A stretch of DNA of 18,636 nt, from IMG/VR virus record IMGVR_UViG_2690316267_000010; one strand, 5' to 3'. Each line of letters begins with the position of its first letter. Positions within the stretch are counted from its first letter, which is position 1. Both the position numbers and the translations under genes were made by a program. Shown here piece by piece: positions 7,959 through 18,636 of this stretch. The notes under the pieces were generated by a model. It was not told the origin of the DNA. It saw nothing but the letters and a program-made list of their open reading frames with translations, and ran no database searches. Source of the stretch: a virus (Duplodnaviria; Heunggongvirae; Uroviricota; Caudoviricetes).

Positions 7959-8966
7959 TCACCCCCTGAATCCTTCCGGGATCTGGCTGTAGTCCACGTT
8001 GTCGTAACTGGCTTTGAAGTACGGGTCCTCGCGTCTGGCTGCAGATACCGCAGGAACTTCCCAGGATTCTTCGAAATGACGATCCGGACCAAAGAACGTC
8101 GACGCCTGCTTCACGAACTGGGTACCGGTATTTCCAGAGACACGCACCCAGGCGGCATAGCGTTTCACACCGTCGAGCATGGTTTCGGGTGTCACACCTT
8201 CCCTGATTCGGGCTTTCCAGGCTTTAAAAGCGGCGGATTTTGAATTACCACCAGCACGTTTGGGATATTCCTGCCAGGCCTGTTCAAATTCCGGTGAATA
8301 TTCCTGTCTGGCAGAACGCGCTGGTGCAGACGCGTCAGCGGATGCGCCAATAGTGTTTTTAGTCTCCGTTGTAATCTCTGTAGTAATCTCTGTAGTAATC
8401 TCTGTAGTAATCTCTGTATTTGTATCAACATTCGGCGTATCCCCTGTTCCGTTATGACGTCGGGGGGTGTTCCGTTTTAACGTAATAGCTGTATCGCTGA
8501 TTGCATTATTGCTGTTACTTTCTGGCGAAACAGAAGAAGGTGTGGTGATGGCCGCAATTGCCTGTGGGTTGATCCCGACAAACAAAATATTGCTGCATTT
8601 CACCCCATCGAGCATTTCCACCGTGCGTAAATCCAGAGTAATAAACCCTGCATCGCGCAGACGCTTCAGCGCATCTGCGGTTTCCCTTTTCCCGAAACCA
8701 AACTGCTCAGCAAACGCCTGGTAGCTTCTTTGCAGTTTGTCGCCCTGAAAACGCTTGCGATATCCCAGCAACGCTCCGGTGTGCTCATCCCTGACCTCTG
8801 TCGGGCGGTACCAGTAAACGATCTCTGAAAGCAGAGCGATAGCCGTCGCATCCGGACGCCCACTGGGTAGTCGAATATATTTCCACCAGGTCGCAGGTGT
8901 AACATTGCCGGAAATATTAATTTGACCAATAGCCATAACTTCCGGTGTGGGGGCGTAACGGCTCAT
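7959..8966 (-). CDS. Putative replication-initiation protein (lambda O-like domain organisation)
   Basis: ATG with GGAAGGAGG RBS; N-terminal domain, central TEITTEITTEITTEITTE linker encoded by 12-bp DNA repeats, and a conserved-looking C-terminal domain (EFEQAWQEYPKRAGGNSKSAAFKAWKARIREGVTPETMLDGVKRYAAWV). Position in the operon matches a replication gene. Confidence 0.5.
   Translation of the reverse strand: MSRYAPTPEVMAIGQINISGNVTPATWWKYIRLPSGRPDATAIALLSEIVYWYRPTEVRDEHTGALLGYRKRFQGDKLQRSYQAFAEQFGFGKRETADALKRLRDAGFITLDLRTVEMLDGVKCSNILFVGINPQAIAAITTPSSVSPESNSNNAISDTAITLKRNTPRRHNGTGDTPNVDTNTEITTEITTEITTEITTETKNTIGASADASAPARSARQEYSPEFEQAWQEYPKRAGGNSKSAAFKAWKARIREGVTPETMLDGVKRYAAWVRVSGNTGTQFVKQASTFFGPDRHFEESWEVPAVSAARREDPYFKASYDNVDYSQIPEGFRG
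8371..8418. repeat. Four perfect tandem copies of a 12-bp unit (GTAATCTCTGTA); candidate origin iterons inside the O-like gene
   Basis: Directly visible at 8371-8382, 8383-8394, 8395-8406, 8407-8418, with a degenerate copy upstream (TCTCCGTT). Confidence 0.6.
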
Positions 8967-9262
8967 ACAACCTCCTTCCGCAGCATGAGAATTGTGTAGC
9001 CACGCGCAGGTTGTAGTCTGGCTTTTGCATCAATAGTAAGCGTTGCAATTTTTCGGATATGAAGATAACCAGCTCTTTCCAGTGCCAGGGTTTCCCTGAA
9101 TATCGCTTGCTTAGAACAACAGCAGAAATCAGCAAGCACCTGATGATCAATAACTCTCTCGCCTTCACCGTCTGAAGAACCCGACATCAAAACACGCAAC
9201 ATAATCAGGCGCTGAATCGGGTTATCGAAAGCACATCCGCACACAAACTGAAAACAGTTCAC
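8963..9262 (-). CDS. Hypothetical protein (99 aa), possible winged-helix DNA-binding
   Basis: GTG start with GGGAGGTG RBS; GTGA overlap with the upstream gene; HTH-like segment QVLADFCCCSKQAIFRETLALERAGYLHIRK. Confidence 0.45.
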   Translation of the reverse strand: MNCFQFVCGCAFDNPIQRLIMLRVLMSGSSDGEGERVIDHQVLADFCCCSKQAIFRETLALERAGYLHIRKIATLTIDAKARLQPARGYTILMLRKEVV

Positions 9263-9483
9263 GCCACACCTCCCAGACGCTTAAACATTTTTCCGGAGCA
9301 AAAGGCTATAAGCGGCATACTGACGCGGTAATTACGGCCCAGCGGTTCACAAACCACCTTCTGACATTCACGGTCAACCAGGCTAACACGTAGAACATGC
9401 CCAGCAGGCGTGGTGTACCACTGACCCGGACGAGGACAACGGAAAGTATGATTGGTAAACCGTTTGAAAATATTCCGGATCAT
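9259..9483 (-). CDS. Hypothetical protein (74 aa)
   Basis: ATG overlapping the stop of the upstream Rha-domain gene (ATGA); sits inside a tightly coupled operon. Confidence 0.45.
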   Translation of the reverse strand: MIRNIFKRFTNHTFRCPRPGQWYTTPAGHVLRVSLVDRECQKVVCEPLGRNYRVSMPLIAFCSGKMFKRLGGVA

Positions 9484-10640
9484 TTGCGCCCCCTTACCTC
9501 TGAAGGGTTCAGCGACAAATTTATGAGACTGGCCAGCGCCGAAGCATCATTAATATAGTCATATAAGCTAACAGCCAGCGGAGATTCGGCTTTTGCCAAC
9601 ATAGGATAAAGCTGCTGCAGCCAGACCTGATGAATTGATGAAATGTAGGAACAGAGAACGCTGGCGTTATGTGCAACGTCGCTCGGTACAGCGGGCTTTG
9701 AAAGCTGTTTCTCCATCTGGTTAAAGGCATTTATGTATGCCTCTTTGAACCGGGCAGCACGTTTACCCGTGAAACCCATAGCAAGAAACGCAAAACCGTC
9801 TCGTGTGATTTGATAGCAAGGGAGCTTGCGTGTACCACCGTTCGGTTGATTTACCGAAATCGATGTCTCCGCAAAATTGCGGGCACAAAACTCTGGGGAA
9901 CAATCCAGAGTGCGGATCTTTTTCAGCACATCGTCGTGACGCTTGGAGAAGAAGTTGGCAACAGCCAAAGAAGTGGTAACGGCCTGGCCGTTGTCAATGG
10001 TGATTTCAGGTTGAGTGAGGGCTGGGATCGTAGCCATGATGGCAGCCTCCGTTGACAGTGAAAAACTTCCACCACCGGAAACGCCAATTTCACTGGTGGT
10101 GAACTGGACGGGGTTGGCGTAACCGGCGTCAACGGAGACCGGCGCACCTTTCGGTGCCCCCGCCCAGCCCACCATAATCTGGATGTGAGCAAATGCGGAC
10201 GATAAAAAAGACGCTGGCGCGTCATACATCGCCGTTGACAATTTCAGGACGCCAATCCCGGCACCCGCTTTATAAGGTGCCTGAGCAGTGTAACGTCCCG
10301 GAATTGCAGAATCAATATGCTGGTGGTCCTTCACACTCAACAAAATCACGCCTGAATTTCCACAAAGGACTAAAGCACTCATGCGGGTAGTCTTTGCGAA
10401 GATAGATAACGCGCTGTGTTTCTGGCTCCCAACGAATAACATGGACATAAAGCCCTCTTCCGTCACGAAACCAGCGGTTAAGTTCCTGCACAACTCGCCC
10501 CCCACAGTCAGGTAAAGTTCTCTGTGGTTACTTACAGCCAGGTGATTTGGTAATCTGCATTCATGCCGTAACAACAGGTGTTCAGCGACGCTGACCACCA
10601 GCTGTTGCGACAAACGGTTATTTGCCGTTAAACTATTCAT
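9480..10640 (-). CDS. Rha-family phage regulatory domain protein with a long unrecognised N-terminal region
   Basis: 386-codon stop-free frame; ATG overlaps the YdaT-like stop (ATGA). Residues ~220-320 (VTTSLAVANFFSKRHDDVLKKIRTLD...CYQITRDGFAFLAMGFTGKRAARFKEAYINAFNQME) match the Rha domain; the first ~215 aa were not recognised. Confidence 0.55.
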   Translation of the reverse strand: MNSLTANNRLSQQLVVSVAEHLLLRHECRLPNHLAVSNHRELYLTVGGELCRNLTAGFVTEEGFMSMLFVGSQKHSALSIFAKTTRMSALVLCGNSGVILLSVKDHQHIDSAIPGRYTAQAPYKAGAGIGVLKLSTAMYDAPASFLSSAFAHIQIMVGWAGAPKGAPVSVDAGYANPVQFTTSEIGVSGGGSFSLSTEAAIMATIPALTQPEITIDNGQAVTTSLAVANFFSKRHDDVLKKIRTLDCSPEFCARNFAETSISVNQPNGGTRKLPCYQITRDGFAFLAMGFTGKRAARFKEAYINAFNQMEKQLSKPAVPSDVAHNASVLCSYISSIHQVWLQQLYPMLAKAESPLAVSLYDYINDASALASLINLSLNPSEVRGRK

Positions 10641-11194
10641 GCGTTAGTTTCTCCACAACCAGAAGCAATCGACGCCACGACGCCCGGAGCTGCACACTCG
10701 CGGGCGTTACTATTTTCTGGAGCGCAGAAGATTTTGTAGACCAGTGCTGCATGCTCCTGGAGCTTCGAAATTGAAAGATACAGTTCGTCGTTAATTGCTG
10801 TCTTCTCATGCGGTTCCACTACACCGTCTTCGATTGCTGAACGAATCTGTTTTGAATAACTGCCGATCTGTTCAATGACTTCCAGTAAACGCTGGTTAAT
10901 ATCGGCATTGTCCACATCCTCGACGTCAGGAAGAGACACAAAGACGCCATTTGCAGACTGCGCCACAGCGTCAGCAATGAAGTGAGTGCCACCAGCACGT
11001 TGTAAAATCATTGCCCATCCCAGCGGGAAAATCTGATCGCCATCGGCACGAAGGCGGTTAAATAATGCGTTCTCTGTTACATCCAGCCACTCAGCAGCTT
11101 CAGCGTAACCCTCCGGCAACGCCGCGATAGTTTTTCTGACAGCTTTCACGTACCACTCAGGCTGTTTTTCCACTTTCCAGTGATGATTACCCAC
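10637..11194 (-). CDS. cII-position regulator, putatively YdaT-like
   Basis: GTG start with AGGAGG RBS 6-7 nt upstream; 185 aa; second gene after cro, the position occupied by ydaT in Rac/CP-933P-type prophages. Family call is from memory. Confidence 0.45.
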   Translation of the reverse strand: MGNHHWKVEKQPEWYVKAVRKTIAALPEGYAEAAEWLDVTENALFNRLRADGDQIFPLGWAMILQRAGGTHFIADAVAQSANGVFVSLPDVEDVDNADINQRLLEVIEQIGSYSKQIRSAIEDGVVEPHEKTAINDELYLSISKLQEHAALVYKIFCAPENSNARECAAPGVVASIASGCGETNA

Positions 11195-11447
11195 GGCTTA
11201 CCTCCTGTTCCTGTGGTTTAAACCCATTCTGGTTTTGGCTAGATTGAAAACGTGCCGGATAAAGAATCTGCATTTCGCTGATTTCACCCTTAAAAAAATT
11301 GGCCAGACGTTCTGCAAGATCGATAGATGGAATTTGTTCCAGTCTTTCAATACGACTCAGCGTCGCTGGATTGACCTGAACGCCAGCAGCAACATGCTGC
11401 AAAGTAAATCCGTGCGCCTTACGCACATTCCGTAATGGTGATTGCAT
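11187..11447 (-). CDS. Cro-like HTH (XRE-family) repressor
   Basis: 86 aa, GGAGG RBS, HTH segment FTLQHVAAGVQVNPATLSRIER; transcribed divergently from the CI-like repressor. Confidence 0.7.
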   Translation of the reverse strand: MQSPLRNVRKAHGFTLQHVAAGVQVNPATLSRIERLEQIPSIDLAERLANFFKGEISEMQILYPARFQSSQNQNGFKPQEQEVSRG

Positions 11448-11544
11448 ATGACCTCCACATATTGCGTGATGAGCATATTATTTCACGCAAATATTTTGCG
11501 CAAGTTGATTTGCTTAACGCGCAATAAAGAAATGTAATAAACGC
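11448..11544. promoter_or_regulatory. OR-like divergent control region between cro-like and cI-like genes
   Basis: 97-bp AT-rich intergenic region with repeated TTGCG/CGCAA half-sites: TTGCGTGATGAGCAT (11462-11476), TTGCGCAA (11496-11503), TTGCTTAACGCGCAA (11510-11524). Confidence 0.5.
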
Positions 11545-12237
11545 ATGAACATAGGAAACCGAGTCAGACAACTTCGCCAGGCGAAGAACATGAAAATCGC
11601 CGATCTCGCTGAAGCAATAGGAGTGGATGCGGCGAATATCTCACGCCTGGAAACAGGTAAGCAGAAACAATTCACTGAACAAGCCCTGAGTAATATTGCC
11701 AGGAGCTTAGGTGTTGATATTGCTGATCTCTTTACCTCAGACGTCAAAAGTAATACTGTATGTAAAAACAGTATTAGTGAGGATGTTGCGCAGGTGAAGG
11801 ATGTATTCCGTATTGAAATGCTGGATGTCAGTGCCAGTGCGGGAAATGGCCTTATCCAGGGCGGTGATGTCATTGATGTGATTCATGCCATTGAATACAG
11901 AACTGATAATGCTGTATCGATGTTTGGCGGACGGCCAGCCAATCACATTAAAGTTATCAACGTTCGTGGGGACAGTATGTGTCCAACCATTGAGCCAGGA
12001 GATCTCATCTTCGTTGATGTCAGTATCAATCAGTTTGATGGAGATGGTATCTATGTATTTGGTTTTGATGATAAAATTTATGTCAAACGACTGCAAATGA
12101 TACCTGACAAACTACTGGTGATTTCTGATAACCAGATTTACCGTGAATGGGGAATTACCAGCGAAAATGAACACCGGTTTATGGTCTTTGGAAAGGTCTT
12201 AATCAGCCAGTCACAAACCCTTAAGCGACACAATTAA
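11545..12237 (+). CDS. CI-type prophage repressor (N-terminal HTH + C-terminal LexA/S24 peptidase-like domain)
   Basis: 230 aa; N-terminal XRE HTH (KIADLAEAIGVDAANISRLETGK); C-terminal S24-like region with GDSM (Ser) and downstream KR (FVDVS...YVKRL). Confidence 0.85.
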   Translation: MNIGNRVRQLRQAKNMKIADLAEAIGVDAANISRLETGKQKQFTEQALSNIARSLGVDIADLFTSDVKSNTVCKNSISEDVAQVKDVFRIEMLDVSASAGNGLIQGGDVIDVIHAIEYRTDNAVSMFGGRPANHIKVINVRGDSMCPTIEPGDLIFVDVSINQFDGDGIYVFGFDDKIYVKRLQMIPDKLLVISDNQIYREWGITSENEHRFMVFGKVLISQSQTLKRHN

Positions 12238-12257
12238 CCCTTACCTCCTCATCAATT

Positions 12258-12281
12258 AGCCACCCAAAGGTGGCTTTTCAT
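12258..12281 (+). terminator. Intrinsic terminator after the repressor gene
   Basis: AGCCACC-CAAA-GGTGGCT hairpin followed by TTTT, 21 nt after the stop codon. Confidence 0.6.
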
Positions 12282-12292
12282 TACCCTTTAAA

Positions 12293-12331
12293 TTGCATAT
12301 CTCGCAATAAAAACACTTGCATAATGCGCAA
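12293..12331 (+). promoter_or_regulatory. OL/PL-like operator pair
   Basis: Two 15-bp near-palindromes TTGCATATCTCGCAA (12293-12307) and TTGCATAATGCGCAA (12317-12331), same TTGC-N7-GCAA pattern as the site at 11510-11524; promoter hexamers not confidently placed. Confidence 0.5.
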
Positions 12332-12776
12332 CTTCATTTTATCTTTCTTTCCAGACAAACAAACAAGGTACTAACAAAATTTGGTTGTAACACGGCGTAT
12401 GGCACATGCGTCGTTAGCGGTCTGGGGACGTTAAAGGGGACAATCCACTCCTTGCTCGAGCAAACAAACCAGGTAGCCGGAATGTGCAAGTCAATGATGA
12501 TGCTGATAAGACGCCTAACCAGCGTGGCGGTTCGGTTTGACACCTGGGAAGAGACCAGGGTGCAACGATGAGGGCATTTATGGAACCGCGACAAAGTGTG
12601 GTGCCGTAACTGGCTAAGTGCTCTCAGCGTTGTGGTGAATGCGCAGGCTGATGCGCGAAAGACATTGCAGCTATTGCGGAAAAGAGCTGTTCGGCGGGGC
12701 AATTAAACGCCCGTGAGAGTCTGAAATAACCGCAAGCCGGAGATCAGCACCGGTCACCACAACAGCCACTGCTTTG

Positions 12777-12822
12777 GCGGTACCAGTTTGTACACTTGCT
12801 TCCGGCTGGTACCGCTCTTTTT
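12777..12822 (+). terminator. Intrinsic terminator within the early-left leader
   Basis: Perfect 10-bp inverted repeat GCGGTACCAG ... CTGGTACCGC (loop 19 nt) followed by TCTTTTTT. Confidence 0.5.
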
Positions 12823-12911
12823 ACAAAACAGAGAAGAGCATCACCGGCCGACGGGCTCATAACCCAATCCATCCGGGCGGCTGCCACCGCAGGTGTTCTT
12901 CTCTGTTTTGT
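12823..12911 (+). repeat. Long inverted repeat (17-bp arms, 16/17 matches, ~55-nt spacer); possible structured leader RNA
   Basis: ACAAAACAGAGAAGAGC (12823-12839) pairs with GTTCTTCTCTGTTTTGT (12895-12911); lies between the leader terminator and the first early-left gene. Confidence 0.5.
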
Positions 12912-12959
12912 GGAGAAACCAACCGACCTTGCAGGGTCGATATGATGAGGAGCAGCAAA

Positions 12960-13322
12960 ATGGCTAGCGAACGCAGTACTGATGTGCAGGCATTTATCGG
13001 GGAGCTGGACGGCGGCGTATTTGAAACCAAAATCGGCGCTGTTCTCAGTGAAGTCGCTTCCGGTGTGATGAATACGAAAACCAAAGGTAAGGTCTCGCTC
13101 AACCTGGAAATCGAACCATTTGATGAGAACCGTGTGAAAATCAAACACAAACTCTCATATGTTCGCCCGACTAACCGCGGGAAAATTTCCGAAGAAGACA
13201 CCACCGAAACGCCGATGTATGTCAATCGCGGTGGTCGCCTGACTATTCTGCAGGAAGACCAGGGACAATTACTGACTCTTGCCGGTGAACCTGACGGAAA
13301 ACTCCGCGCAGCAGGTCATTAA
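12960..13322 (+). CDS. Hypothetical protein, 120 aa (same size and position as CPS-53 YfdP)
   Basis: ATG with GAGGAG RBS 8 nt upstream; the longer track ORF (TTG at 12774) is rejected because it begins inside the terminator hairpin. Confidence 0.5.
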   Translation: MASERSTDVQAFIGELDGGVFETKIGAVLSEVASGVMNTKTKGKVSLNLEIEPFDENRVKIKHKLSYVRPTNRGKISEEDTTETPMYVNRGGRLTILQEDQGQLLTLAGEPDGKLRAAGH

Positions 13323-13387
13323 TATCGTTTTTAATAAACTGATTATTTCTCTCATCACTGAATATTTTTATATAGTGAGGACTTATT

Positions 13388-14212
13388 ATGTCTCAGAACT
13401 TAGACGCAACCGCAATTAATCAAATCCATGCCCTTATTTCTGCTCAGGGTGTTAATGAAATTATCAGTAAGATTGGTGCCGATGCTGTGGCATTGCCTGA
13501 GAATTTCCGCATTCATGATCTGGAAAAATTTAATTTAAATCGTTTCCGTTTCCGTGGTGCGCTTTCCACTGCCAGCATCGATGACTTTACTCGTTATTCT
13601 AAAGATCTTGCAGATGAAGGCACCCGCTGCTTTATCGATGCCGATAATATGCGTGCCGTCAGTGTGCTTAACCTGGGTACTATTGATGAGCCAGGTCACG
13701 CAGATAACACTGCCACTCTCAAACTGAAAAAGACAGCACCGTTCTCTGCTCTGTTGTCTGTTAATGGCGAGCGTCATTCCCAGAAGTCACTGGCAGAATG
13801 GATTGAAGACTGGGCCGACTACCTTGTGGGCTTTGATGCTAATGGTGACGCTATTCAGGCAACAAAAGCGGCTGCGGCTGTCCGTAAAATCACGATTGAA
13901 GCAAACCAGACCGCTGATTTTGAAGATAATGACTTCAGCGGCAAACGCTCCCTGATGGAGTCTGTCGAAGCGAAAACCAAAGATATTATGCCAGTGGCAT
14001 TTGAATTTAAATGCGTTCCGTTTGAAGGTCTGAAAGAACGTCCATTTAAATTACGCCTCAGCATTATCACTGGCGATCGTCCTGTACTGGTTCTGCGCAT
14101 TATTCAGCTGGAGGCGGTGCAGGAAGAAATGGCTAACGAATTTCGTGATCTGCTTGTTGAGAAATTCAAAGACAGCAAAGTAGAAACCTTTATTGGTACT
14201 TTCACCGCCTGA
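13388..14212 (+). CDS. yfdQ: DUF2303-family protein (YfdQ-like)
   Basis: 274 aa, GTGAGGA RBS; N-terminus [57 protein letters not shown] matches CPS-53 YfdQ as recalled. Confidence 0.7.
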
Positions 14213-14339
14213 TTTCATTACTGCAAATGCCCCTGCGGGGGCATTTATGGAAACGTAATTGACTCAATAATCGCCGGATGGTGAGGGCTTCCTTTTACCA
14301 GAATTCAGCGTGGTGCAGCACATATACGCGGAGAACAAA

Positions 14340-14864
14340 ATGTCATTTATTAAAACTTTTTCCGGGAAGCATTTTTATTATGACAGGATAAATAAAGACG
14401 ACATCGTGATTAACGATATCGCGGTTTCCCTTTCAAATATCTGTCGCTTTGCCGGTCATCTTTCACACTTCTACAGTGTCGCCCAACATGCGGTGCTTTG
14501 CAGCCAGCTGGTGCCGCAGGAATTTGCTTTTGAAGCGTTAATGCATGATGCAACAGAAGCGTATTGCCAGGACATCCCCACGCCGCTGAAACGTCTTCTT
14601 CCTGACTATAAACGGATGGAAGAAAAAATAGACGCCGTAATCCGTGAGAAATACGGGTTACCCACGGTTATGAGCACGCCTGTGAAATATGCCGATCTCA
14701 TCATGCTGGCAACCGAACGCCGCGATCTCGGGCTTGATGATGGCTCTTTCTGGCCTGTACTGGAAGGTATCCCGGCAACAGAGATGTTCAAAGTTATTCC
14801 ACTGTCGCCAGGCCATGCCTATGGGATGTTTATGGAACGCTTTAAAGAGTTAACTGAGTCGTAA
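14340..14864 (+). CDS. yfdR: HD-domain phosphohydrolase (YfdR-like 5'-deoxynucleotidase)
   Basis: ATG with GGAGAA RBS; 174 aa; HD motif (EALMHDATEAY); follows the YfdQ-like gene as in CPS-53. Confidence 0.7.
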   Translation: MSFIKTFSGKHFYYDRINKDDIVINDIAVSLSNICRFAGHLSHFYSVAQHAVLCSQLVPQEFAFEALMHDATEAYCQDIPTPLKRLLPDYKRMEEKIDAVIREKYGLPTVMSTPVKYADLIMLATERRDLGLDDGSFWPVLEGIPATEMFKVIPLSPGHAYGMFMERFKELTES

Positions 14865-14972
14865 AAATCAGCACGTACGAATTCAAACTCTGCCATAAAA
14901 GAACATATAAGTAATTTATTAACATATAGATATAGGTTATATTACAAATTGAAAAATTATTGGAGAGCAACA

Positions 14973-15839
14973 ATGAATCAAAATCCATTCTCATTCTATG
15001 ACTTTCTTGGATATTTAATACCAGGTGGTTTTTTTATCCTATTAATGTATTTCTGTGGTTTGACATTCGATCTAGATATTGTTATTGACTTAACTGAATT
15101 GCTCAGAGGTCAAAGTCAAATCTTTGGCATTTTGAACTATGGTTCAATAGTAATCATATCTTACATAGCTGGACACTTTATATCTATCACATCCGCATTT
15201 TTTATTGAAAAATATATGAACGAAGAATTGCAATATCCATCAGAATATCTATTTAATAAGTTATCAGATGACAAAAAAAACGTCTTAACACCATCAAGTG
15301 ACAAACAGAACGAAGACACAAAGAGAAAAATAAAATACTGCATAATCAAAGTAATGTTATTCCCGATAATACCATGGGATTACGCCACTCAAAAACTATG
15401 TTATTCACAATCATTGCCATTTCAATTAGCTAATACCACATGGCTAATGATCAAAGAAGGTTATGAAAAAAAATTCAGAATAGACGATAAATTATTAAAC
15501 ATCAGGACAGGTCTTCATGATGATCTTTTCAGATTGGCTTATCATTACGTCTATGAATTTTCTAATCAACATCAAACAAAAATTCAAAACTATGTTGCAT
15601 TATATGGTTTTTGCAGAAATATTTGTTTAGTATTTGTAATTACATTTTGGATATCATTTCTAACATTAATTTATCGTGCTATAGAAGGTGGGGCGGTGTC
15701 TTATATTTCTATTTCGACGCTACTTAGCTTTTTCTTCGTCTATGTTTTTTATGTTGGATTCGTTAAGTTTTATAGACGATATACTTTAGAGGTATTAATG
15801 GCATTTGCTGTACTTCAGAGCAAAGATGCTATTAATTAA
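14973..15839 (+). CDS. AT-rich multi-pass membrane protein (288 aa), function not recognised
   Basis: ATG with GGAGAG RBS; hydrophobic segments FLGYLIPGGFFILLMYFCGL, IVIISYIAGHFISITSAFF, ICLVFVITFWISFLTLIY, ISISTLLSFFFVYVFYVGFV around a hydrophilic central region; much lower GC than its neighbours. Confidence 0.6.
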   Translation: MNQNPFSFYDFLGYLIPGGFFILLMYFCGLTFDLDIVIDLTELLRGQSQIFGILNYGSIVIISYIAGHFISITSAFFIEKYMNEELQYPSEYLFNKLSDDKKNVLTPSSDKQNEDTKRKIKYCIIKVMLFPIIPWDYATQKLCYSQSLPFQLANTTWLMIKEGYEKKFRIDDKLLNIRTGLHDDLFRLAYHYVYEFSNQHQTKIQNYVALYGFCRNICLVFVITFWISFLTLIYRAIEGGAVSYISISTLLSFFFVYVFYVGFVKFYRRYTLEVLMAFAVLQSKDAIN

Positions 15840-15879
15840 TATATTACCCTCGGGTGCAGCCGGGATAATGGAGAAATTT

Positions 15880-16161
15880 ATGAACACCTTGTTTTTACTG
15901 ATGGCTGAATTCAATACCTCAAACATTGAACTCTCAGCAGTTAGCCAAAAGTACTTTGGTATGAGTCCAGCCACAGCAGAAGCAAAAGCAAACGCTTGTA
16001 AGTTGCCCGTTCCAACATATCGCATCGGCACATCACAAAAAGCAAAACGTTGCATCAATATTCAGGATCTTGCGGAATACATAGACAAAAGACGAGAAGA
16101 AGGACGTATCGAGTGGGAACAGGTCAGAACAGGCAAACAGAAGGGCAAAGAACATCACTAA
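15880..16161 (+). CDS. PrtN (pyocin-activator)-family small DNA-binding protein
   Basis: ATG with GGAGAA RBS; product MNTLFLLMAEFNTSNIELSAVSQKYFGMSPATAEAKANACKLPVPTYRIGTSQKAKRCINIQDLAEYIDKRREEG resembles PrtN-family proteins as recalled. Confidence 0.55.
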   Translation: MNTLFLLMAEFNTSNIELSAVSQKYFGMSPATAEAKANACKLPVPTYRIGTSQKAKRCINIQDLAEYIDKRREEGRIEWEQVRTGKQKGKEHH

Positions 16162-16163
16162 AG

Positions 16164-16189
16164 AAAAAACCCGCCTAAAGGCGGGTTTT
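16164..16189. terminator. Bidirectional intrinsic terminator
   Basis: AAAAAA-CCCGCC-TAAA-GGCGGG-TTTT between the convergent PrtN-like gene (plus) and the 57-aa ORF (minus). Confidence 0.7.
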
Positions 16190-16208
16190 CAAAAAGCACC
16201 AGCTATGA

Positions 16209-16382
16209 TCATGCTGCTTTGCGACGACGAAGCTTACCCTGCTGCTCTTTACCAGAGACAGTAGCGTGAGTGAACGCATTAGGAGCAGCCTTCATCAGAA
16301 CTTCAACAGCAGCCCCCATACCTGCGAATGCTTTCATTGTGTCGAACTTAAGCTGTGGCTTGGTTGCTTTTTGATCTTCCAT
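16209..16382 (-). CDS. Small basic protein (57 aa), last gene of the minus-strand Panacea operon
   Basis: ATG with GGAG RBS, 40 nt downstream of the 139-aa gene; product MEDQKATKPQLKFDTMKAFAGMGAAVEVLMKAAPNAFTHATVSGKEQQGKLRRRKAA; stop lies 20 nt before the bidirectional terminator. Found by hand. Confidence 0.4.
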   Translation of the reverse strand: MEDQKATKPQLKFDTMKAFAGMGAAVEVLMKAAPNAFTHATVSGKEQQGKLRRRKAA

Positions 16383-16421
16383 AGAAAACTCCAGAAGTTA
16401 TACCGAAACAATTCCTGTTGT

Positions 16422-16841
16422 TTACTCATCATCAATAGATGATACGCAATATTTATTTTTAAATTTAAGGTTCTTTGGCGTAACTTCATCAGAGATATCA
16501 AAACCGTCCAGAATTCTATTGAATGTAGCTTCTGGCATATCATCATGAACAGAAATCTCACCCGATCGCTGCTTTCTAACCATGTTATCCACTCGCCAAA
16601 TTATAGCTTCAGCGTAAACAACATAACTTGGATGCTTGATAAAGCGATGATCACCAGAATTCAAGACGCAAGACGGATCGTGGGGGACACCATCCTTGAT
16701 ACTAGAAATATTAACAACTAAAACACAATAACAATCGTTAACGGGGTAATAAACAGGATCATTACAAATCACATGAAGATGATTGCATGGTCCAGTTGGG
16801 GCAAGCACAGTTCCTTTCCTGTATGGCTGATAATCCGTCAT
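16422..16841 (-). CDS. Unrecognised 139-aa protein, candidate toxin/effector partner of the Panacea-domain protein
   Basis: ATG overlaps the stop of the upstream DUF4065 gene (ATGA); AT-rich; Cys/His-rich N-terminus (GPCNHLHVICNDPVYYPVNDCYC); no family recognised. Confidence 0.55.
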   Translation of the reverse strand: MTDYQPYRKGTVLAPTGPCNHLHVICNDPVYYPVNDCYCVLVVNISSIKDGVPHDPSCVLNSGDHRFIKHPSYVVYAEAIIWRVDNMVRKQRSGEISVHDDMPEATFNRILDGFDISDEVTPKNLKFKNKYCVSSIDDE

Positions 16842-17410
16842 GATAATTGCAAAGAAAATTCCTTAAGTTTCTGAGATTCTTCCATTTTGCCAATTATGCG
16901 ATTAGCCTCATCCTCGCTTTTACCCTCACTGATCAGCATTTCTTTCAGGTCTATAGGCTTACGAGAATTGCCAGGATCGTGCCACTCTGGACAAACGCTT
17001 TCTAAATGCGTCATATTTGCGAGATCAAATCGGTTCATATGCCCATACCGAGAATAGATTTCATCTAAAATCCGGATATCTGCACGACTCAATTCATCAA
17101 AGACCTCGTCTGCATCCATTTCCCTCGGATCTGAACGCAACGATACATTATGCCCGTTCGTCTCTATCAAGTTGTACCAGTAGTCACCAATGCCTTCAGC
17201 CTTACCGCGAATCAAGTTCAGCGTATTCGACATGACTGGTCCAAATTTCATAGAGTAAAGGCTATCTTCGCCGATCATCCTGCCATGCTTCAAAATCGAC
17301 TGGCGGTTAGACAGATAGAGCAGCTTCATCAATTTCAGATATGCCATGCGCCCACCTCTCTTAAGAAGTAGGTATGCAGCCATTTGAGCTACTTTTTCTT
17401 CGCAAAACAT
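16838..17410 (-). CDS. Panacea-domain (DUF4065, GepA/SocA-like) protein, candidate antitoxin
   Basis: 190 aa, GAGG RBS; N-terminal region AYLLLKRGGRMAYLKLMKLLYLSNRQSILKHGRMIGEDSLYSMKFGPVMSNTLNLIRG resembles DUF4065/Panacea proteins as recalled. Confidence 0.6.
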   Translation of the reverse strand: MFCEEKVAQMAAYLLLKRGGRMAYLKLMKLLYLSNRQSILKHGRMIGEDSLYSMKFGPVMSNTLNLIRGKAEGIGDYWYNLIETNGHNVSLRSDPREMDADEVFDELSRADIRILDEIYSRYGHMNRFDLANMTHLESVCPEWHDPGNSRKPIDLKEMLISEGKSEDEANRIIGKMEESQKLKEFSLQLS

Positions 17411-18061
17411 ATAAGAAACCTCAAAGATAGTGAACTTTATAATTATTCTCGATACTTCATGGGTTGCTTCATCACCAACATGAGCTTCTTATGGTGTGCC
17501 CACTTGGGCCTAAGCAACCAGTTACCTCGTTTGTCAAGTTTATAGCTGGCTTTAACCATGGTCAATTGAAGTGATGAGCAAATGATGCTTTCTAAGAATA
17601 ACAGGTTCCCAATAGGCTCCCACAAAGTGTATAACTAGTTGTTTTTCAAAAATGGTACATCCTATCGAGCATTGGTGCAACGCTAAACCGACCACTCCAG
17701 TGAACGTCAGTTTTTTCAGGCATTGCGCTGGTTTGGTTGATTTTTTGCATTTCAGAATTACCGTGCATTTTCAAATGTAGAGATTATTTTATCGATATAT
17801 CATGGGGTTATGTTATTCAGCATCACTATTCAGGAGGCTCAATAGCGGGGTACTATACCATAACAACAGGAAGCGCCTGTCTCATTGCAAAAGAAAATTG
17901 AGATCCTCTCAAGGCATGAAGCTCTCACGAAGTGATGGAAATAATCTTATTAGCCGTTAACTTTGTTAAGGCCAATGATAAACAATCCAGGTTCGACGAT
18001 AAATAAAAAATCACACATTAAACTCTGGTGATATATCTCCCTGCTAATAGCATTGATAGAG

Positions 18062-18095
18062 AAAAAAGAACCCAATAAATATTGGGTCCTTTTAT
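18062..18095 (-). terminator. Intrinsic terminator downstream of the IS1-disrupted gene
   Basis: GAACCCAATA-AA-TATTGGGTCC hairpin flanked by A6 and T4; on the minus strand followed by TTTTTTCTC. Confidence 0.4.
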
Positions 18096-18130
18096 ATAAT
18101 GCCTTCCATACTATCGAAGAACTTCACATA

Positions 18131-18532
18131 TTATTTCTCCGATTTAACCCCGAACAAATCATAAATTAATTTAGAAGTGTCTGTAAGTATTTTAATCTCT
18201 TCCTTTGAGGTTGGGTCAAACGACTTCGCGAAGCTAATTAATTGTGGTGCAGCATCTCGCATTTTGCTTAAAATATCAGGATCGAGCGTTCCTTCATTCA
18301 CCAGATGTGACATCTTATCCAGATAGCCATCAAAATTCATTTCTCCCCCATCAGCCAGACGCTTCATCTCTCCCAGGTACTTCTTCATATCACGTTGAGA
18401 TAATTTTTCAAACTGAGCTTTCAGGTAGCTCTCATTATTTTCATTAATATACACTGTTTCTGATAAATCTGCGTAGGCACTAGAATATGAAAGTGAAATT
18501 AACAGCGAAGCAAATAATTTTAAGCTGTTGTC
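18131..18532 (-). pseudogene. Secreted/periplasmic protein gene truncated at its 5' end by IS1
   Basis: Reading frame is open from the IS1 junction (18532) to the stop at 18131; the sequence before the track's GTG start encodes a signal-peptide-like stretch ...SLKLFASLLISLSYSSAYA|DLSETV... with no in-frame start before an in-frame TAA inside the IS1 inverted repeat. Confidence 0.5.
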
Positions 18533-18636
18533 GGTGATGCTGCCAACTTACTGATTTAGTGTATGATGGTGTTTTTGAGGTGCTCCAGTGGCTTCTGTTT
18601 CTATCAGCTGTCCCTCCTGTTCAGCTACTGACGGGG
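18533..18636 (+). mobile_element. IS1 left end (terminal inverted repeat and start of insA), continues beyond window
   Basis: GGTGATGCTGCCAACTTACTGATTTAGTGTATGATGGTGTTTTTGAGGTGCTCCAGTGGCTTCTGTTTCTATCAGCTGTCCCTCCTGTTCAGCTACTGACGGGG matches the canonical IS1 left terminus as recalled. Confidence 0.85.
18588..18636 (+). CDS. insA: IS1 InsA (N-terminal fragment, continues beyond window)
   Basis: GTG GCT TCT GTT TCT ATC AGC TGT CCC TCC TGT TCA GCT ACT GAC GGG = (M)ASVSISCPSCSATDG, the InsA N-terminus. Confidence 0.7.
   Translation, partial: MASVSISCPSCSATDG

Follow-up and report, generated by a model that had tools for sequence, protein, structure and literature searches.

An IS1-disrupted, frameshifted DUF2713 (yjbL/yjbM) pseudogene next to a dusA prophage in Escherichia coli

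Introduction

In Escherichia coli K-12 BW25113 a gene of the DUF2713 family lies between dusA and zur, where it is annotated as one frameshifted pseudogene of 986 bp (L001 4232-5217). Older K-12 annotation divides the same sequence into two genes, yjbL (b4047) and yjbM (b4048). A phylostratigraphy study (PMC12218254) lists the pair yjbL-yjbM as a young operon whose function is unknown, and in the literature on the E. coli genes we found no account beyond that listing. Most publications retrieved with the name yjbM concern the (p)ppGpp synthetase of Bacillus subtilis, which is unrelated, or a Yale journal.

The second partner in the locus described here is the insertion sequence IS1. On transposition IS1 duplicates 8-10 bp of its target, usually 9 bp. 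The element also makes adjacent deletions without a duplication (PMC9330008, section 5.2.1), and its inverted repeat contains an outward -35 box which is able to form hybrid promoters (PMC8764528; PMC9330008).

The DNA analysed, called the window below, is a stretch of 18,636 nt from the virus record IMGVR_UViG_2690316267_000010 (Caudoviricetes). An earlier reading of its last part, made from the letters alone (the sequence-only reading), proposed that IS1 had removed the initiation region of a gene for a small secreted protein. Comparison with E. coli genomes leads us, with high confidence, to a different description: a simple IS1 insertion into an already frameshifted chromosomal yjbL/yjbM pseudogene, the remnant of which is most likely silent. 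The feature is ordinary and already explained; RefSeq records the gene as a pseudogene in this lineage, and a public assembly contains the same junction.

Results

The minus-strand frame next to IS1 is open from the stop codon of the gene (18131-18133) up to the junction at 18532, and the translation from 18634 reads ...HHHTLNQ*VGSITDNSLKLFASLLISLSYSSAYADLSETVYINENN...GVKSEK*. The only in-frame stop upstream is a TAA at 18548-18550, inside the inverted repeat of IS1, and the first ATG, GTG or TTG after it is the GTG at 18454-18456. In these respects the frame is as the sequence-only reading had described it. The GTG is indeed the first start available to an ORF finder, and yields an ORF of 107 aa; as an annotated start it does not hold, since the codon specifies the internal valine 222 of the 328 residues of intact proteins. 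The sequence preceding it, TTATCAGAAACAGTG, contains no Shine-Dalgarno sequence. Just past the stop codon, at 18064-18093 on the minus strand, there is an intrinsic-terminator-like hairpin followed by a T-run.

The product of about 104 aa, which had been considered unrecognised, belongs to the DUF2713 protein YjbL/YjbM. The open frame at 18131-18532 (minus strand; 133 codons and the stop) matches Pfam PF10897 with E=2.7e-88 and 296 bits against a cut-off of 27, and the match is limited to profile positions 103-235 of 235, as for a C-terminal fragment. The fragment can be equated with residues 196-328 of P0050, an intact protein of 328 aa that represents a cluster of 2579 member sequences; one of the 133 residues differs. 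At the DNA level, 4268 out of 5426 complete E. coli genomes contain a match to 17900-18532, in every case at a feature that is annotated as DUF2713 protein or yjbM, and 17665-18532 aligns with K-12 (L001 3766-4633) at 99.9 % identity. The gene is flanked by zur and dusA, the latter being split by a prophage here, and thus occupies the same position as yjbL/yjbM of K-12. Intact homologues from O157:H7, WP4-S17 and D72 have 318, 320 and 330 aa, respectively, and all share the same N-terminal start; the overall length range of intact homologues is 318-340 aa. The gene has therefore been cut from its 5' end by IS1, as proposed, but the loss is not confined to the initiation region: 195 codons are missing.

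Searches of DUF2713 against NCBIfam and PADLOC gave no matches, and against PDB sequence profiles nothing was found even at E <= 10. In PHROGs the matches were to unnamed families, which probably contain the DUF2713 gene as a neighbour of dusA prophages. Residues ~249-289 of P0050 (window ~18250-18370, minus strand; FDGYLDKMSHLVNEGTLDPDILSKMR) resemble the SHOCT-like repeats (DYAARLxQLVKEGKLTPEQAKKLL) of P0155, a TrbI-domain protein.

The left end of IS1 begins at 18533, in agreement with the earlier claim. The plus strand from this position reads GGTGATGCTGCCAACTTACTGATTTAG..., or in a longer reading GGTGATGCTGCCAACTTACTGATTTAGTGTATGATGG..., and the terminal inverted repeat GGTGATGCTGCCAACTTACTGAT... 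is present at the end of the element. All 104 bp of 18533-18636 (plus strand) are identical to the left ends of annotated IS1 copies in the complete E. coli genomes J2, EC931, S171-1, LHM10-1, TUM1881 and R18 and to the copy in the assembly L011 described below (0/104 mismatches). The insA start codon, a GTG at IS1 position 56, is located at 18588, and the element then runs off the window. The bases adjoining it, GCTGTTGTC at 18524-18532, are present once in uninterrupted genomes.

As the window ends 104 bp into IS1 and includes the left copy of GCTGTTGTC only, the duplicate copy and the 5' portion of the gene can be seen only in a sister assembly. This assembly, L011 (GCA_977064715.1, a contig of 4.87 Mb), was retrieved by look-up of the product of the 107-aa ORF. 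It is 100 % identical to window positions 8131-18636 (10,506 bp, with no mismatch or gap), junction and prophage included. The gene order in L011 is zur, yjbL (84 aa), a 131-aa DUF2713 ORF, InsB, InsA, the 107-aa ORF, the Panacea-domain gene and the prophage. The element is 768 bp long and carries genes with PF03811/PF12759 and PF03400 (DDE_Tnp_IS1), i.e. InsA and InsB. Beyond it the target is repeated over 9 bp and the gene resumes with the 5' portion absent from the window: L011 has GCTGTTGTC, the 768-bp IS1, a second GCTGTTGTC and then ATCATGTTCC..., where K-12 has a single GCTGTTGTC directly followed by ATCATGTTCC. Read further, the sequence past the second copy, ATCATGTTCCTGGCAGGC..., is the exact continuation of K-12. 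The element has the terminal sequence of IS1 of the IS1A/IS1B type from E. coli and Shigella, and the L011 copy resembles that type in its length, in having insA and insB and in its 9-bp duplication in AT-rich DNA (GC content of 36.8 % at 18131-18532). Its right end is GGTAGTGACTCC, compared with GGTAATGACTCC in IS1A, which makes it a minor sequence variant with nothing distinctive.

When IS1 and one copy of the duplication are removed from L011, the result is the 986-bp gene with 0 differences from K-12, including the frameshift. The frameshift is due to a run of seven A residues in K-12, at about nucleotide 238 of the gene, compared with eight in the intact allele of D72. RefSeq labels the gene as frameshifted in the strains that most resemble the window, among them SCPM-O-B-12142, which is 99.9 % identical over window positions 1-18532 and has the same prophage. 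Since the sequence before insertion already carries the K-12 frameshift, IS1 is the second lesion in a pseudogene, and the gene in the window differs from yjbL/yjbM of K-12 in being additionally split by IS1 at a point 402 nt before the 3' end. A -1 slip on the AAAAAAA of the K-12 run would restore the full-length frame (HARKK followed by NVFLI...).

The remainder of the window, 1-17664, is one arm of a lambdoid, Stx-phage-like prophage in dusA that lacks stx. Positions 1-18532 are 99.9 % identical to E. coli chromosomes that bear a prophage and have phage annotation. Homology to K-12 starts at 17665, and 17665-17780 (minus strand) contains what was originally the 5' end of dusA (the first ~104 nt of the gene), now separated from the remainder by the prophage; in near-identical strains RefSeq annotates a partial tRNA-dihydrouridine synthase there. 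At the position that stx occupies in Stx phages, between three tRNA genes (2495-2742) and a gene for a DUF6645/NanS-like esterase, TerB-family and DUF3927 genes are found instead, according to near-identical strains. Related prophages at the dusA site carry stx2 in other strains. Rfam matches above the gathering score were obtained for the AgvB anti-GcvB sRNA (1467-1528, plus strand), STnc100 (1529-1722, minus), C4 antisense RNA (10092-10179, minus) and isrK (10204-10280, minus). At the end of the prophage beside dusA, a Panacea-domain (SocA-like, PF13274) gene at 16838-17410 overlaps by 4 bp with a 139-aa ORF at 16422-16841, both on the minus strand; the two could be a toxin-antitoxin pair.

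Discussion

The comparison with K-12, D72 and L011 gives the following course of events. A K-12-type allele was first split by loss of one A from the run of eight, giving yjbL (84 aa) and yjbM (235 aa). Simple transposition of IS1 then took place at codon 195/196 of the ancestral frame, with duplication of the 9-bp GCTGTTGTC, and left in the window the distal 402 nt of the DUF2713 gene joined to the first 104 nt of IS1. We infer that the far side of the insertion in the genome from which the window derives does not differ from that in the L011 assembly, which is 100 % identical to the window where the two overlap. It would accordingly be expected to hold a 768-bp IS1 ending ...AAGTTGGAGTCACTACC (also read as GGAGTCACTACC), then GCTGTTGTC, and then ATCATGTTCCTGGCAGGC (or ATCATGTTCC).

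The proposal of a small secreted protein was based on the segment K-LFASLLISL-SYSSAYA upstream of the GTG. The segment is present; followed by D, it has the n/h/c layout and the AXA motif typical for a signal peptide, and the 11-residue Kyte-Doolittle window reaches its peak of 2.05 there. For it to serve as one, the gene would have to encode a Sec-secreted protein of ~104-130 aa from which IS1 took the start codon and the extreme N-terminus only, and this we regard as refuted. In every uninterrupted homologue about 195 further residues precede the segment in the same frame, and the intact proteins start neither at the GTG nor near the segment. The fragment amounts to the C-terminal 133 codons out of about 328, and the Pfam match begins at profile position 103. 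The intact protein lacks a hydrophobic stretch at its N-terminus (Kyte-Doolittle mean of -0.06 over the first 19 residues) and probably has no signal peptide. The best mean over 19 residues anywhere in the protein is 1.39, and as no such window exceeds this value, a membrane span is unlikely too. In the public collection, 957 blocks have the 107-aa ORF as a gene of its own. At all ten loci of this kind that were examined the K-12 gene still aligns upstream (complete in six, interrupted in four), which marks the separately called ORFs as remnants and not short genes.

The same segment has a different place in the family. The hydrophobic stretch LKLFASLLISLSYSSAYA (in the longer reading LKLFASLLISLSYSSAY) comprises residues 199-216 of 328 and is the most conserved motif of DUF2713. 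When 1.84 billion representative proteins were searched exhaustively with HMMER, few real relatives emerged apart from close copies in E. coli and fragments. In the distant relatives P0151, P0153, P0166, P0169 and P0174 (19-24 % identity, 313-426 aa) the motif is internal in all cases, with the form LLISxSYxSxxAD, and S210 and D217 are among only ten columns that are invariant. A first AlphaFold model had a pLDDT of 45.5 and was too poor for use; the model made with the distant relatives reached a mean of 62.7, with 73-93 over residues 190-320, and places the motif within a helix (197-221) of an all-helical C-terminal region. The conservation and the model together indicate a conserved helix, buried or structural, which the truncation has left exposed at the N-terminus. 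Caution is warranted more generally, as an internal amphipathic or hydrophobic helix, once exposed in this way, can mimic a signal peptide.

Two further alternatives accept the DUF2713 identity of the fragment. In one of them IS1 adjoins a deletion or inversion that it has caused in the window's genome, and the gene has lost its 5' part or has it elsewhere. An arrangement of this kind exists in EC931, where IS1 is located at the identical nucleotide in the same orientation and is followed by sequence from just upstream of zur with no duplication, the 5' part having been deleted. EC931 belongs, however, to a different lineage, with no prophage in dusA and with a 92 %-identical allele (4 of the 70 adjacent bases differ; 92 % identity over the 254-bp junction query), whereas L011, identical to the window over 10.5 kb including junction and prophage, has a clean insertion with the 9-bp duplication. 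A rearrangement in the window's genome is therefore very unlikely. In the other alternative, the remnant has been re-activated by a hybrid promoter and gives a transcript, perhaps even a 107-aa C-terminal helical fragment from the GTG at 18454. A promoter-like site does straddle the junction on the minus strand (18517-18546): the outward-facing TTGGCA of the IS1 inverted repeat (18541-18546) as -35, a spacer of 18 nt and TAAAAT in the gene remnant as -10, a match to consensus only, at 10 of 12 positions. Hybrid promoters formed by IS1 have been described (PMC8764528; PMC9330008, Table 1), the terminator-like hairpin lies past the stop codon, and the model is predicted best over residues 190-320. 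The weight of these points is reduced by the frequency of such sites, five in the region against 3.3 +/- 1.6 in shuffled sequences, and by the suboptimal spacer; the GTG has no preceding Shine-Dalgarno sequence, and the fragment is without the N-terminal two thirds of the conserved core of the family. Expression of the remnant thus appears very unlikely. A remnant in which no start codon has a ribosome-binding site most likely makes no protein, and a simple insertion into a silent, previously frameshifted gene is the reading we retain.

The use of one nucleotide by IS1 in both EC931 (L004 2648-2656) and the window (18524-18532) is most simply taken as independent use of the same site, and it suggests a preferred IS1 target at GCTGTTGTC; as evidence for re-use of one exact nucleotide by the element, it is suggestive only. 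Other IS1 copies in the gene, each with its own duplication, are at CGAAGCGAA in S171-1 (18 nt from the site in the window), AGATTCCTC in LHM10-1, CGGTCAAC in TUM1881 and CAATAATTA in R18, and strain 700481 has another IS1 in the same gene. In J2 the element is located just downstream of the gene, with the duplication GAAGTGATG. With the exception of EC931, which has the exact site, the IS1 insertions within the gene and the IS4/5-type insertion of L009 differ in position and duplication from the insertion in the window. All IS1 copies recovered have one orientation because of the design of the query. None of the complete E. coli genomes in the collection carries the insertion of the window in the allele of the window. 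Eight records cover the junction query: EC931 has IS1 at the identical site in a different allele, and the others have the element elsewhere in the gene. The exact junction gave 0 matches in GTDB contigs with one genome per species, a collection that holds a single E. coli genome and is thus uninformative on this point. A statistically significant hot spot for IS1 extending over the whole gene was considered and rejected: where the median genome contains ~10 IS1-end matches, about 8 insertions across 5426 genomes are not clearly above expectation.

Decay of the gene is recurrent. At the ten loci with a separate 107-aa ORF the lesions include an 85-bp deletion (L008), an IS4/5-type element (L009), the IS1 of L011 and, elsewhere, point lesions with a nonsense or frameshift pattern. 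The independent inactivations comprise the slip in the A-run, a deletion, point lesions and no fewer than seven IS insertions, of which two occupy one and the same nucleotide. The GC content of the DUF2713 gene is 34 %, compared with 52-54 % for zur and dusA, and the gene is essentially restricted to Escherichia. The identity of allele proteins at the same syntenic site goes down to 45 % (P0178), or to 41-51 %, depending on the alignment (P0122), and an N-terminal repeat of 10 residues (DATKDKLDNx) is present in 1-3 copies. DUF2713 is in this sense hypervariable at a fixed site, with protein identities from ~41-45 % to 100 %, while the flanking gene order is kept (L023 8001-8894; L025 4001-5005; L005-L007). 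Such a pattern would be in keeping with antagonistic or diversifying selection on the protein, which might for instance be effector-like or a surface- or host/phage-interacting factor. We regard it as unlikely that either this or expression of the C-terminal fragment from an IS1 promoter accounts for the locus.

The importance of the insertion itself is small, as it is a textbook case of IS1 transposition, and its practical value lies in correcting the annotation, in which the 107-aa ORF ought to appear as a 3' fragment of an IS1-disrupted, frameshifted DUF2713 (yjbL/yjbM) pseudogene and not as a small secreted protein. The hypervariable and recurrently decaying DUF2713 locus between zur and dusA may merit a population-genetic look. 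Among the distant relatives, P0151 (397 aa) is encoded on a 6.3-kb metagenomic contig (L024 1187-2380, 3842-4777) near a pentapeptide-repeat/SopD-like gene, which is type III effector-like, and a KfrA_N gene.
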